Source: a virus
Reading direction: 5' to 3' (one strand)
Length of the DNA: 48,623 nucleotides
Virus record (IMG/VR): IMGVR_UViG_3300020576_004942
The notes beneath the pieces were generated by a model, which was given only the letters and a program-made list of their open reading frames with translations, was not told the origin of the DNA and did no database searches. The position numbers and the translations under genes are program-made. Within the stretch, counting starts at the first letter, position 1. Each line of letters opens with the position of its first letter. This document shows, piece by piece, positions 16,298 through 19,894 of the stretch.

Positions 16298-17257
16298 ATG
16301 AAAATTAAGAGTACCCCTCCCGCTGATGTGGGAATTATCGTCGGACGTTTTCAAGTTCCGGCCCTCCACGAAGCTCACGTCGAACTAATTCAAACCGTCG
16401 TTGACCGCCATAAAAAGGTCATTATGTTCCTGGGTCTTTCCCCCGTCAAGACGACCAAGAACAACCCTTTAGATTACCAGGCGCGCAAGCAAATGGTGCT
16501 GGACAAATTTCCCCATATCAACGTCCTGTACATCAAGGATCAGAAAGAAGATGATGTCTGGTCGAAGAATTTGGACAGTCAGATTACCGATTTAGTCGGC
16601 CCTAACCAAACCGTCGTGCTCTACGGCGGCCGGGACGCATTCATTCCCCACTACACCGGAAGATTTCCCACACTGGAACTGGAACCTAAACGGGTCGCGT
16701 CGGGCAGTGAAATTCGCAAAGAAGTAGGTAATGCCACCAAGGGCACTGCCGATTTCCGACGTGGCGTCATCTGGGCCGTGGAAAACCAATACCCCACTTT
16801 TCATCCGACCTGTGATGTTTGTATCATTAATACCGCCAAGAACGAAATCCTCCTTGGTAAGAAACCCGGCGAAAAGGAATATCGCTTCCCCGGCGGCTTT
16901 GCCGACCCGGAGGGTGACAAGTCGATGGAGCAAACCGTGCGGCGTGAAGTGATGGAAGAATGCCCCGGAATGGAAGTGTCGGACCCGCAATACATCGGCA
17001 GCGCAATGGTTGACGACTGGCGTTACAAGGATGAAGTCAACAAGATTATGACGATGTTTTATATGGTGGAAATGGTCTATGGTGCGCCCAAGGCCGGCGA
17101 CGATCTGGCCGAAGTCCGTTGGTTTAGTATCTGTGAATTGATTCGGGACGAAATCCCGTTGGTAAAAAATCACAGGATGCTCCGGGAGATGGTTTTGAAA
17201 AATAAACGCTTCGTCGAATTGACGAGCGGTTCGATTGTGGACGCGGATTCGGTCTAA
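16298..17257 (+). CDS. nadM: bifunctional NMN adenylyltransferase / Nudix ADP-ribose pyrophosphatase (NadM-Nudix, NatV-like)
   Basis: The N-terminal nucleotidyltransferase has VGIIVGRFQVPALHEAH. The C-terminal Nudix box is GGFADPEGDKSMEQTVRREVMEECPG. Confidence 0.7.
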   Translation: MKIKSTPPADVGIIVGRFQVPALHEAHVELIQTVVDRHKKVIMFLGLSPVKTTKNNPLDYQARKQMVLDKFPHINVLYIKDQKEDDVWSKNLDSQITDLVGPNQTVVLYGGRDAFIPHYTGRFPTLELEPKRVASGSEIRKEVGNATKGTADFRRGVIWAVENQYPTFHPTCDVCIINTAKNEILLGKKPGEKEYRFPGGFADPEGDKSMEQTVRREVMEECPGMEVSDPQYIGSAMVDDWRYKDEVNKIMTMFYMVEMVYGAPKAGDDLAEVRWFSICELIRDEIPLVKNHRMLREMVLKNKRFVELTSGSIVDADSV

Positions 17258-17280
17258 TCACTAATAGAAAGTAAAATAAA

Positions 17281-18702
17281 ATGAATACCAAAGAAAATTT
17301 CGTTCTCCTATCGGATAGTTACAAGTTTAACCATTGGGACATGTATTTGGATGGCATAGAATACGTCCATTCGTATTTTGAGAGTCGCCCGGGGGCTAAA
17401 TTCCCCTATACCGTGTTCTTCGGCCTCCAGATGTATTTGAAAAAGTACTTTGAGGGCGTGGTTGTCACCAAAGCGGATGTTGATGAAGCGGAGGCTTTCA
17501 GCAATGCCCACTTCGGGATGAACAATTTCAACCGCAAAATGTGGGATAAGATTGTTAATGTTCACGGGGGTAAGTTGCCGTTACGCATCCGGGCTGTCCC
17601 GGAAGGGACACCGGTCCCGGTATCGAACGTGATGATGACGGTGGAAAACACCGACCCCGATTGTGCGCCTCTCACCAATTTCTGTGAGACGATTCTGACG
17701 CACCTGTGGCATCCATCGAATGTCGCCACGATCAGCCGCGACCTGAAGCAGTTTATGCAGAAGGCATTTGATAAGAGTGTCTGTGAAGATCAGGCCGGGA
17801 TGCTTGACTTTCTACTCCACGATTTCGGATTTCGGGGCGTGAGCAGTGTGGAATCGGCCGGCCTGGGCGGCGCGGGACATTTGGTCAATTTCTTGGGCAC
17901 GGATACAGTCATCGGAATTACTTACGCCCAGAGATACTACGGGGCCAAGATGGCGGGATATAGCGTTCCCGCATCGGAGCATAGCGTAATGACTTCGTTG
18001 GGTGAAGCCGGTGAATTTCAGATGTTTGAGCGGTTGATTGAGAAATTTCCCCAAGGCATCTTGTCGGTTGTTAGTGATTCGTATAGCATTGAACGGGTGA
18101 TGAATGATTTTCTCCCCCGGCTGAAAGACCGAATTCTTGCCCGTGAGGGTAAGTTCGTGGTACGACCTGACAGCCCACGTTTTAAAGGCGACACCGCCGC
18201 CGACCAAATTGTGTGGATTGCGCAACAATTAGAAAAAACTTTCGGCGTAGTCGTAAACGCAAAGGGTTTTAAAGTTCTCCACCCCAAGGTTGGTGGTATC
18301 TACGGCGACGGAATGAAACCGGAAGAGATTAAAGAGGCGCTTAACGCCTTGATGGCCGCTGGCTTTAGTGCCGCAACTTTCGTCTATGGCATGGGCGGCG
18401 GTTTGTTACAGAAACATAATCGTGATACCCAGCGGAGCGCATTCAAATGTTCGGCGCAGAAGCGGAATGGTGAATGGTTCGACATTTACAAGATGCCGTT
18501 GGATAAAACCAAGGCGTCGAAGCGTGGCCGATTGAAATTGGTATGGGCCGAAGGTGCGCATGGCGGAATGTTAACCACCGTGGACATTACCGACCCACGG
18601 CGGGATGAACTGGTGACGGTATTTGAAAACGGAATTGTCACCAAGGCTTGGACTTGGGATGAAGTGCGAAAGAACGCAACCACGAAACTATTAGGAGAAT
18701 AA
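17281..18702 (+). CDS. nadV: nicotinamide phosphoribosyltransferase (NAMPT/NadV)
   Basis: 473 aa. The N-terminal LLSDSYKFNHW and overall length are typical of the NAMPT family. Confidence 0.75.
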   Translation: MNTKENFVLLSDSYKFNHWDMYLDGIEYVHSYFESRPGAKFPYTVFFGLQMYLKKYFEGVVVTKADVDEAEAFSNAHFGMNNFNRKMWDKIVNVHGGKLPLRIRAVPEGTPVPVSNVMMTVENTDPDCAPLTNFCETILTHLWHPSNVATISRDLKQFMQKAFDKSVCEDQAGMLDFLLHDFGFRGVSSVESAGLGGAGHLVNFLGTDTVIGITYAQRYYGAKMAGYSVPASEHSVMTSLGEAGEFQMFERLIEKFPQGILSVVSDSYSIERVMNDFLPRLKDRILAREGKFVVRPDSPRFKGDTAADQIVWIAQQLEKTFGVVVNAKGFKVLHPKVGGIYGDGMKPEEIKEALNALMAAGFSAATFVYGMGGGLLQKHNRDTQRSAFKCSAQKRNGEWFDIYKMPLDKTKASKRGRLKLVWAEGAHGGMLTTVDITDPRRDELVTVFENGIVTKAWTWDEVRKNATTKLLGE

Positions 18703-18704
18703 TT

Positions 18705-19232
18705 ATGAATGAAATTCGTTACGAAATTTTAATGGAGGATGTAGATTTTACTATCCCGTCCATTTTTCTGGCCGGCCCAACCGTTCGGGGCCACCAACCG
18801 CACTTGACTTCTTGGCGCAACGAAGCAGTCCAAATTTTCAAGGAAAAGAAATTTGACGGAAACTTGATTATTCCGGAGTTTACAACCAAAAGCGAATCTG
18901 ACCAATATCGTTATGATATTCCTGTTTGGGAATCTGGTGGCCTTACCCAAAGCCATGTCATATTGTTCTGGATACCACGCAGCCGTGAACTGATTGGTCT
19001 GACCACCAATCACGAACATGGTCATTGGATGGCCCGTGACCGCAGCAAAATGGTTTATGGACATCCAGCCGATGCTTACCGTATGACTTACCTTGATATC
19101 ATGTGGGTAGAGGATGCTAAGAGGCGGCAACGGGAATGCGGATCGCCTATTCCATGCCCAATCTATACAAAATTGGATAAAACCATTGATGCGGCTATGG
19201 AATTGGTTAGGCTAAAAATGCTAAAAGTATGA
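18705..19232 (+). CDS. nucleoside 2-deoxyribosyltransferase/DNPH1-like Rossmann protein
   Basis: PSIFLAGP and VWESGG motifs. Confidence 0.35.
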   Translation: MNEIRYEILMEDVDFTIPSIFLAGPTVRGHQPHLTSWRNEAVQIFKEKKFDGNLIIPEFTTKSESDQYRYDIPVWESGGLTQSHVILFWIPRSRELIGLTTNHEHGHWMARDRSKMVYGHPADAYRMTYLDIMWVEDAKRRQRECGSPIPCPIYTKLDKTIDAAMELVRLKMLKV

Positions 19233-19396
19233 ACCGCCGGATTGAACAATTGGAAGAAGCGCTCCAAGACGAATACGAAAAGGAATATCAACGGCTTCTC
19301 AAGGAAGATTGGGAGCATTGGCAACGAACCGGAAAAAGAAAATATGAAAAACCGGAAGTCACGGAAACCTGGGAATATAAAGGTGACACTTACTGA
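19229..19396 (+). CDS. possible small acidic protein (55 aa)
   Basis: ATGA-coupled to the upstream gene and read by eye. It lies below the track cutoff. Confidence 0.3.
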   Translation: MNRRIEQLEEALQDEYEKEYQRLLKEDWEHWQRTGKRKYEKPEVTETWEYKGDTY

Positions 19397-19399
19397 AAA

Positions 19400-19894
19400 A
19401 TGAAAATAACTCCCACACATTTATATTTTTGGAGCGGTGTTTTTTCCAATTGGCATCCCGCACCATTTACGATGCCAATCTCTAAAAAAACATTCGCCAA
19501 CAGCGAACAAGCTTTTATGTGGTATAAAGCTAATATATTTGGGGATACCCAAACGCAAACACTGATTGAAAATCAGACCAATCCCAAGGAGGTTAAAAAA
19601 CTTGGTCGCCTGGTTAAGGGCTTCGACGAAACGAAGTGGTGCGAACTAAGAACCGGATCGATGTTCATTGTTTGTTATAATAAATTCGATCAGAACAAAG
19701 CGATGAAAAAAGAACTTCTGGAAACAGGTTCTAGGCATTTGGTCGAAGCCTCACCCTACGATAAAGTGTGGGGCGTTGGTTTGGAAGAAAATGACCCGTT
19801 GATACTGGATGAAAAAAATTGGCGGGGTTTAAACCTTTTAGGAAAGGTTTTAATGGATGTGCGTAATCAATTTGAATTTGAAAAATCCGCATGA
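19400..19894 (+). CDS. NADAR (DUF1768/YbiA-like) domain protein
   Basis: Motifs HLYFWSGVFSNW...FANSEQAFMWYKA...LGRLV.GFDETKW...MF...KF.QN...LLETG...LVEASPYDKVWGVG. Confidence 0.65.
   Translation: MKITPTHLYFWSGVFSNWHPAPFTMPISKKTFANSEQAFMWYKANIFGDTQTQTLIENQTNPKEVKKLGRLVKGFDETKWCELRTGSMFIVCYNKFDQNKAMKKELLETGSRHLVEASPYDKVWGVGLEENDPLILDEKNWRGLNLLGKVLMDVRNQFEFEKSA

Follow-up and report, generated by a model that had tools for sequence, protein, structure and literature searches.

Depletion of nicotinamide adenine dinucleotide (NAD+) and ADP-ribosylation of nucleic acids are among the commonest anti-phage strategies of bacteria, and the phage answers to them, NARP1/2/3 and AdfN, have been described only in the last few years and separately from each other. 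The original biochemistry of the NadV/Nampt and NatV/Nmnat-Nudix enzymes of Vibrio phage KVP40 was reportedly worked out by Lee et al. in 2017. In the NARP2 pathway of this phage, Nampt makes nicotinamide mononucleotide (NMN) from phosphoribosyl pyrophosphate (PRPP) and nicotinamide, and Nmnat then makes NAD+ (Osterman et al., preprint 10.1101/2024.02.11.579819). With both enzymes present, defence by type I Thoeris and DSR2 was lost and NAD+ levels went up; these are the two systems against which NARP2 was tested, and protection from SIR2-HerA, DSR1 and SEFIR was shown for NARP1 (10.1101/2024.02.11.579819). Among phage NADAR proteins, AdfN-Bas60 neutralises DarT1 and rescues three phages from DarTG1 (PMC11825919), and all NADAR subtypes tested in vitro hydrolysed guanine carrying ADP-ribose (guanine-ADPr). 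That NADAR genes can be found close to NadM and NadV had been noted before (Iyer et al. 2022, PMC9503650). Here we describe a gene cluster on the + strand of a 48,623-nt stretch of viral DNA (IMG/VR record IMGVR_UViG_3300020576_004942, as a whole referred to as the window), in which a NadM-like gene, NadV, a gene resembling nucleoside 2-deoxyribosyltransferases (NDT-like) and a NADAR gene follow one another. The cluster is probably an accessory, early-expressed operon of a T4-like phage that combines a NARP2-type NAD+ module with a coupled NADAR/NDT-like glycosidase module, so that this locus and its relatives would hold both phage answers within one early operon.

NARP2, the phage NADAR anti-DarT factors and the NADAR-NadM/NadV neighbourhood are already published. 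The recurrent linkage, fusions included, of the NDT-like family PF15891 to NADAR and to NadM-NadV-Prs is what we did not find in the searchable literature; likewise, nothing on PF15891, YtoQ or NDT-NadV linkage in phages turned up there, which is absence of evidence only. We computed which domains are present, how well active sites and the promoter are conserved, and which genes are linked or fused, and from this we infer enzymatic activities, substrates and a counter-defence phenotype.

Results

The gene content of the window, with rIIA and rIIB (6227-9877), an RNA ligase, a helicase, DNA methyltransferases and a GIY-YIG homing endonuclease, almost all of its genes being on the + strand, identifies it as part of an uncultured T4-like phage. 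No tRNA genes were found and no Rfam families matched in the window. The region of the cluster has no DNA-level relatives among 50,697 phage records, and proteins identical to the NadM-like and NDT-like ones are on record from a 125.5-kb Joint Genome Institute (JGI) contig.

The four open reading frames (ORFs) named in the first-pass annotation are present on the + strand exactly as it had delimited them (16298-19894), and profile searches together with structure comparison upheld its four domain assignments, those of NadV and NADAR by the very domain searches it had proposed. In order, they encode a NadM-like protein of NMNAT type with a Nudix domain (319 aa, 16298-17257), NadV, a NAMPT (473 aa, 17281-18702), the NDT-like protein, a predicted ribosyl N-glycosidase of the DrHyd superfamily (PF15891; 175 aa, 18705-19232), and a NADAR-domain protein, a predicted ADP-ribosyl N-glycohydrolase of the Glu type that resembles PnNADAR and AdfN-Bas60 (164 aa, 19400-19894). 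The transcription unit goes beyond these four and comprises seven tightly packed genes with a 3′ limit at 20299, all of them either translationally coupled or separated by gaps of 1-23 nt. Its three additional small ORFs (19229-19396, 19891-20112 and 20114-20299, all +) are joined to their neighbours by ATGA overlaps or gaps of 1-3 nt, and therefore most likely belong to the same operon, as all seven genes most likely do. The first of them, ATGA-coupled and placed between the NDT-like and NADAR genes, encodes a charged, probably helical protein of 55 aa without a Pfam, PHROG, NCBIfam or PADLOC match and without homologs in the related loci that we fetched (given below as L numbers; related proteins have P numbers). 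The NDT-like and NADAR genes had been described as directly appended to the NAD+ genes; this holds for the NDT-like gene, which abuts NadV, but the 55-aa ORF separates it from NADAR. The second small ORF overlaps the NADAR stop codon (ATGA) and encodes a 73-aa protein, likewise without a family match in Pfam, PHROG, NCBIfam or PADLOC. The unit closes with a gene for a 61-aa zinc-ribbon protein (weak zinc-ribbon Pfam matches; PHROG 2834 at 7.5e-7), a 48% identical homolog of which sits between NadV and NADAR in L019. No intrinsic terminator was found 3′ of the operon, and the next gene is preceded by an AT-rich palindrome and a promoter-like site.

Linkage was sampled from 160 loci, as 68 de-duplicated NadM-anchored and 71 NDT-anchored clusters with 10-kb neighbourhoods. 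In 60 of the 68 viral loci (88%) NadV is no more than 10 kb away from NadM, always on the same strand; the two are neighbours in L008, L017, L019 and Tunturi_5, an Acidobacteria jumbo phage, and a 97-aa ORF intervenes in L021. A PF15891 gene is found within 10 kb of NadM in 10 of the 68 loci, often in the order NadM-NadV-(Prs)-PF15891. Around the 71 NDT anchors we counted NadV in ten clusters, Prs in nine, a small PF09414 ligase in nine and NADAR in five, plus one NADAR fusion. In L034 (three contigs) the window's order of NadV, NDT-like and NADAR recurs with abutting genes and an NDT-like protein only 51% identical to ours, and in L030 the NADAR stop overlaps the NDT-like start. L033, a 362-kb contig, encodes a single 338-aa protein that consists of NADAR (3e-50) followed by PF15891; around its gene, on its own strand, are NadM-like, NadV, Macro, HAD_SAK_2 and Prs genes. 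At least five protein clusters, with identities down to 63%, contain this NADAR::PF15891 fusion. Other members of the PF15891 family are fused to NUDIX, to Metallophos (calcineurin-like phosphoesterase) or to an NMNAT-type CTP_transf_like domain. A more canonical PF15891 gene stands 3′ of NadM-NadV(-Prs) in L127, L158, L163 and L149, and PF15891 genes of two subclades adjoin NadM-NadV. The NDT-like gene is the component most strongly linked to NADAR, through fusion and through abutting genes.

An early view had taken the NDT-like gene as mere phage backbone unrelated to the NAD genes, on the basis of seven close NDT-like relatives from IMG/VR, near which NAD genes were not found, and of L009; it was overturned by the 160-locus survey and the fusions.

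Genes of the NDT family also repeatedly adjoin a small PF09414 ligase of about 212-233 aa (L001, L003, L011-L013, L016, which is Tunturi_5, and L024-L028). The Tunturi_5 copy is annotated as an ATP-dependent DNA ligase, and a PRPP-synthetase-like gene often stands 1-1.4 kb beyond such ligases. On the L033 contig a glutamate-synthase-like gene (Glu_synthase, 5e-84; 4732-6237) is placed between NadM and NadV, and the genes 3′ of the fusion, at 10473-11748, encode a Macro-domain protein and a HAD_SAK_2 (RNA-repair ‘Swiss army knife’ HAD) protein.

NadV of the window has both NAMPT_N (2.5e-32) and NAPRTase (3.4e-38) domains, scores 526 bits against NF006629 (cut-off 405), matches PHROG 448 at 6e-149 and aligns over its full length with human NAMPT (2e-101); the catalytic His (in SEHS) and the nicotinamide-specifying Asp (in HDFG) are both present. 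Its NadM-like partner is recognised by Pfam NUDIX over residues 169-285 (2e-10) and, in the N-terminal half, by a PHROG cytidyltransferase family (3e-9) and by NCBIfam NadM models (1.6e-15, far under their cut-offs), and both halves align to the solved bifunctional NMNAT/Nudix enzyme slr0787 (2qjo; 5e-11). The clade of this protein has a HIGH-type motif, GRFQxPxLHx(A/G)H, in which H27 is invariant and H24 at least 90% conserved, and conserves SGxEIR as well as a Nudix core, R216-E217-x2-E220-E221, with a non-canonical spacing of the Nudix box. Judged against the canonical NMNAT motifs GRFQPFHxGH and ISxTxxR, these deviations appear compatible with NMNAT activity, and the protein is best described as a member of a divergent NadM clade with a predicted NMNAT activity.

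Like NARP2 of KVP40, the pair consists of a full-length NAMPT with its catalytic residues adjoining a bifunctional NMNAT-Nudix protein, without an Adps partner (as searched in the window only) and in the setting of a large T4-like phage. It differs in that the NadM-like protein is divergent, with about 24% identity to the closest annotated phage NadM-type proteins outside its clade (the KVP40 protein itself was not compared), and in that the pair shares its operon with NDT-like and NADAR genes downstream. A NARP1 reading (Adps plus Namat) was rejected: tblastn with phage Prs-like proteins found no Prs/Adps gene within the 48.6-kb window, and NadV is 40-45% identical to NadM-linked phage NadVs versus about 30% to an Adps-linked (NARP1-type) homolog. 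By comparison, reading NadV and the NMNAT-Nudix protein as NARP2 is well supported by domains, NadV motifs and gene linkage; the pair appears to be a divergent member of this known pathway and very likely has its function. Two details of the first-pass annotation have to be narrowed. It had NAD+ made from nicotinamide and ADP-ribose; nicotinamide stands but direct use of ADP-ribose does not, given that the substrates of NARP2 are nicotinamide, PRPP and ATP, and ADP-ribose could enter only via Nudix cleavage to ribose-5-phosphate plus a PRPP synthetase. It had also listed Thoeris, DSR and SIR2 as the defences countered; for NARP2 this is published for type I Thoeris and DSR2, but SIR2-HerA belongs to the NARP1 results.

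The NADAR protein matches PF08719 (7e-47) and PDB 8bau (2e-16) and scores 152.9 bits against TIGR02464 (cut-off 73.7), a model that effectively describes the NADAR domain generally. Its residues E36, K43, R70, W80, R84, E116, D121 and W124 align to E43, K50, R79, W89, R93, E125, D130 and W133 of PnNADAR (8BAU), a stand-alone eukaryotic protein of the same fold, and all ADPr-contact or catalytic residues that Schuller et al. listed for PnNADAR are retained. Among them are E36 and K43, the catalytic Glu and Lys as known from PnNADAR, E. coli C7 NADAR and AdfN-T4. E. coli YbiA (2B3W), a bacterial housekeeping protein of the NADAR fold, is matched weakly (2e-4). AdfN-Bas60 (bas60_0111), the orphan NADAR of Escherichia phage PaulScherrer, aligns over 91% of the protein at 35% identity (E 4e-29); like the window protein it is stand-alone, in the range of about 165-185 aa, and the two have the E/K catalytic residues and the VEASPYD Glu-type motif in common. 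It belongs, however, to another phage group and another neighbourhood, without NadV nearby, and has Tyr in place of W124. T4 AdfN (gp30.3), although also a NADAR-fold protein in a T4-like genome, shows no detectable pairwise similarity (BLASTP E 0.57) and is of a different clade with His where the window protein has E116, and membership in the AdfN-T4 clade was rejected on both counts. Because the active site is intact and the protein is homologous to AdfN-Bas60, which counters DarTG1, the ADP-ribose reversal proposed in the first-pass annotation is reasonable. The protein is likely to be an ADP-ribosyl glycohydrolase; that it is specifically an anti-DarT1-type factor has slightly less than an even chance.

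Four other NADARs (P0463, P0485, P0492 and P0503), close to the type that is fused to NDT-like domains, carry a tRNA-binding OB-fold (PF01588), which hints that some phage NADARs may act on RNA.

The PF15891 (Nuc_deoxyri_tr2) assignment of the NDT-like protein is backed by a predicted structure. Its own match (2e-6, 28.5 bits) is slightly under the 30-bit gathering cut-off; the family is in the precomputed annotation of most listed homologs, including the identical P0001, and was matched by all 50 homologs scanned. The AlphaFold2 (AF2) model (pLDDT 96) matches NDT-type Rossmann-like folds. Invariant positions include G24-P25 after strand 1, W37-R38, R92 and, across 71 and 50 homologs, E104 in TTNxExG, which resembles the catalytic-Glu motif of NDT/DNPH1; by motif and secondary structure, E104 would be positionally equivalent to their nucleophile Glu. 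Because several arginines are invariant, the substrate may be phosphorylated. DNPH1/Rcl, MilB and the nucleoside 2-deoxyribosyltransferases share the Rossmann-like fold and use the Glu of T/G-x-x-E-x-G after strand 4 as nucleophile. Identity to them is, however, 10-15%, the family has invariants of its own (W37-R38, R92, TTN), and its context points to NAD/ADP-ribose compounds and not to (deoxy)nucleoside monophosphate or nucleoside salvage. We give about even chances to the NDT-like enzyme being an N-glycosidase that acts on a phosphorylated nucleotide derived from NAD or ADP-ribose.

The family is large (589 matches in one search; about 1000 clusters at 50% identity) and nearly missing from cultured phages (6 records). 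Its clade includes 4mcj (BDI_0649), a structural-genomics protein, and gp334 of Bacillus phage G (AEO93593.1), which is NUDIX-fused and 37% identical to the window protein. Iyer et al. 2022 included the latter among viral DrHyd domains, as a predicted ADP-ribosyl cyclase (ARC; PMC9503650). Fold ranking gives no support to an ADP-ribosyl-cyclase (CD38-like) reading of the NDT-like protein, and PADLOC found no match between it and defence effectors such as the retron NDT.

A terminator and a separate promoter had been noted ahead of the block, and both are there. The intrinsic terminator (16127-16161, +) closes the upstream unit of genes for secreted or outer-membrane-protein (OMP)-like products (13937-16112); its hairpin (16127-16154) has an 11-bp stem with 7 GC pairs and a 6-nt loop, is followed by TTTTTTT, and is the first-listed terminator-like site in 13000-24000. 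The sigma70-type extended -10 promoter (16179-16206, +) reads TTGACA-16 nt (TG)-TATACT, with 11 of 12 consensus matches, and is the joint-best promoter-like match in 11 kb. TTGACA-N16-TATA(C/G)T is kept 94-122 nt 5′ of NadM in ten other phage loci (L017, L019, L021 and seven more) with protein identities of only about 45-78%, relatives at 57-78% included, and its persistence across such strongly diverged loci argues that the promoter is functional. Between it and the NadM-like ATG lies a 5′ leader (16207-16297, +), about 85-91 nt long, in which AAAGG resembles a Shine-Dalgarno sequence, the distance from -10 to ATG being 91 nt. This leader had been called unusually long, at about 90 nt, which its relatives contradict: with the same promoter at a similar distance, leaders of related NadM operons measure 65-93 nt. 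Sequence blocks of the leader are conserved in L017, in L018 (where the leader is the same as in L017) and in L019. No Rfam family matched it at gathering or permissive thresholds, it does not fold better than shuffled sequence (z +0.46 and -0.36), and RNAalifold with related leaders gave no consensus structure; a riboswitch or structured leader was rejected on these results. Given the typical length, the lack of an Rfam match and the lack of a supported structure, we treat it as an ordinary 5′ untranslated region.

A separate motif, GAAAGATG-N6-14-CAAGTA with an inner mini-stem, is missing from the window and occurs in the 5′ leaders of three other NadM-NadV operons, L112 (9917-9938, +), L119 (9913-9933, +) and L132 (2732-2753, +), and also in L138 (5856-5876, -). 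The outer stems that enclose it differ in sequence between leaders. It was matched 4 times in about 3 Mb of loci versus about 0.2 times by chance, a rough estimate, and might serve NAD-salvage operons of phages as a small cis-regulatory RNA.

Discussion

In the mechanism that we propose, NadV would join nicotinamide and PRPP to NMN and the NMNAT domain would adenylate NMN to NAD+, restoring what host TIR, SIR2 or similar effectors have depleted. The Nudix domain would split ADP-ribose, possibly also surplus NAD(H), into AMP and ribose-5-phosphate. The NDT-like and NADAR proteins would form a second module, a functionally coupled pair of ribosyl N-glycosidases. Within it, NADAR would most likely strip ADP-ribose off guanine in nucleic acid, as AdfN-Bas60 does against DarT1, and the NDT-like enzyme would most likely use its invariant Glu to cleave the base-ribose bond of a phosphorylated nucleotide derived from NAD or ADP-ribose. 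Our preferred guess, offered tentatively, is that it releases adenine from AMP or ADP-ribose and so supplies ribose-5-phosphate, which a PRPP synthetase would turn into substrate for NadV. The alternative, that it inactivates ADP-ribose-derived immune signals by destroying them, we consider less probable. In its boldest form the proposal has two versions: the NDT-like and NADAR proteins make up a two-enzyme, sometimes fused glycosidase module that extends NARP2 and recycles ADP-ribose/AMP debris into NAD+, or else the NDT-like protein is an anti-defence enzyme that cleaves the adenine-ribose bond of NAD-derived immune signals. We regard this as a long shot. If the recycling version were true, the phage would undo ADP-ribosylation of nucleic acid through NADAR and feed ribose-5-phosphate from the debris back to NadV, the NDT-like enzyme breaking down ADP-ribose/AMP in concert with the Nudix domain and a PRPP synthetase. 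The NDT-like family is abundant and biochemically blank, and it is tied to both phage answers by fusion and gene order. Assigning its substrate would fill a gap in the phage NAD/ADP-ribose network and might reveal a new route for recycling or inactivating ADP-ribose derivatives.

Several observations weigh against this mechanism or parts of it. The NMNAT motif departs from the canonical GRFQPFHxGH by a two-residue insertion and, in the window protein, a Gly to Ala change, and members of the clade do not conserve the first Glu of their Nudix box. NADAR exceeds the cut-off of TIGR02464, a YbiA-type model, and its clade contains fusions with Macro, Nudix and tRNA-binding domains, a pattern as compatible with soluble or RNA-linked substrates as with DNA. 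Characterised members of the NDT-like clade (4mcj, YtoQ, phage G gp334) were not found in the searchable literature. The window has no PRPP synthetase or Adps gene, so recycling would need a host enzyme or a gene elsewhere in the roughly 125-kb genome. Finally, a NADAR gene is within 10 kb of NadM in only 2 of the 68 NadM-anchored loci, and in L019, and several close relatives do without one or both modules, L021 among them. In L017 (NadM 78% identical) NadV is followed by three small ORFs and then by the gene that also follows the operon in the window (81% identical), without NDT-like and NADAR genes. L009 shares four upstream genes and then has the NDT-like gene, without NadM-NadV and NADAR; L019 has NADAR 1.8 kb past NadV and no NDT-like gene. 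The combination seen in the window is therefore not required. The first-pass annotation had made the four genes a combined module; they do share one operon, but the closest relatives do not inherit them together as a four-gene island. Because these relatives lack NDT-like, NADAR or NadM-NadV in varying combinations, the island is a mosaic of separable modules.

The alternative that survives best is that NADAR and the NDT-like enzyme act on soluble or RNA-linked ADP-ribose derivatives and not on DNA, as Iyer et al. 2022 predicted in general terms for the NADAR, Macro and SLOG domains of phages (PMC9503650). Candidate substrates would be by-products of RNA repair (ADPr>P, ADPr-1''-P), NAD-capped or ADP-ribosylated RNA, or signals of the cyclic ADP-ribose type. 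Five kilobases upstream of the operon, in the same orientation (10456-11894), the window has a fitting RNA-repair pair of genes, a PF09414 RNA ligase with a PHA02142 OB-fold domain (10456-11511, +) and, overlapping it, a protein with a cREC_REC cyclic-phosphate-processing domain (1.4e-21; 11496-11894, +). The small PF09414 RNA ligase beside NDT-like genes in 9 of the 71 loci, the Macro and RNA-repair-type HAD_SAK_2 genes after the L033 fusion, and the fusions of clade NADARs to the tRNA-binding OB-fold, Macro and Nudix domains point the same way. Yet phage NADARs tested so far, the nearest (Bas60) type included, all acted on guanine-ADPr DNA, the only soluble NADAR substrates demonstrated are riboflavin intermediates, and a KptA/Tpt1-type ADP-ribosyltransferase (ART) that would generate ADPr>P was not found in the window. 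We regard a soluble or RNA-linked substrate as possible, at odds well short of even.

Next, the operon could be an auxiliary metabolic boost rather than a counter-defence, providing more NAD+ for phage replication and for NAD-consuming phage enzymes. NARP2 raised NAD+ in defence-free cells too (10.1101/2024.02.11.579819), NadV is present in over 2000 records of phages with very different hosts, and the strong early promoter is of a constitutive type with no recognisable sensor or riboswitch. However, no NAD-consuming enzyme (ART, PARP, Sir2 or NAD-dependent ligase) turned up in 54 further ORFs of the window, experiments with the same enzyme pair did show evasion of defence (10.1101/2024.02.11.579819), and co-location with an anti-DarT-type NADAR fits a role in conflict. 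As the main purpose of the operon a metabolic boost seems unlikely, but the two readings are not mutually exclusive and may both hold.

Somewhat more unlikely still is a chance juxtaposition of four independent genes in a hyperplastic early region. The presence/absence mosaic of L017, L009 and L019 is what such a process would leave, and the five closest NDT-like relatives in IMG/VR (64-76% identical) neighbour the small ligase and Prs, not NadV. Chance would, on the other hand, have to account for NADAR::PF15891 fusions in at least five protein clusters with both gene orders abutting, for the NadV-NDT-like-NADAR order recurring in L034 at so low an NDT identity, for two PF15891 subclades beside NadM-NadV, and for seven window genes coupled or 1-23 nt apart. 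That NADAR is a YbiA-type housekeeping N-glycosidase destroying reactive riboflavin-pathway intermediates is very improbable: it has the 153-bit match to TIGR02464 (riboflavin intermediates N-glycosidase; cut-off 73.7) and a Glu at position 116 as in the YbiA/PnNADAR group, not the T4-type His, but E. coli YbiA is matched at 2e-4 versus 2e-16 for PnNADAR, no riboflavin biosynthesis genes were found in the window, YbiA too hydrolyses guanine-ADPr in vitro, and the neighbours and fusions are ADPr-related.

Other genes in the window

Directly 3′ of the operon, behind the promoter-like site, an ORF at 20397-22955 (+) encodes an 852-aa protein with a Major Vault Protein (MVP) shoulder domain (6.8e-18), Vault_3 repeats and a long coiled-coil-like C-terminal region. 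It has no PHROG match, and a vault/SPFH-like protein is unusual in a phage; the 81% identical homolog in L017 (11362-13923) has the same position past NadV. Just 5′ of the operon, three genes (13937-15019, 15048-15584 and 15588-16112, all +) encode envelope-like proteins, two with signal-peptide-like N-termini (one of them weakly matching OMP beta-barrels), the third being a multi-pass membrane protein. Their counterparts in L009 and L017 are 51-71% identical, L017 lacking the membrane protein.

Further away, we noted a second, stand-alone NUDIX protein (4304-4834, +; 2.3e-10), a metallophosphoesterase-like protein that is kept in L017 and L019 (23155-23829, +) and an OGFr_N-domain protein (33571-34014, +). 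The GIY-YIG homing endonuclease (PHROG 314, 2.7e-26) is encoded at 40041-40793 (+). A - strand ORF that runs off the window start (ending at 442) matches the same L006/L007 sequence as this endonuclease, and may be a second, partial copy of it.

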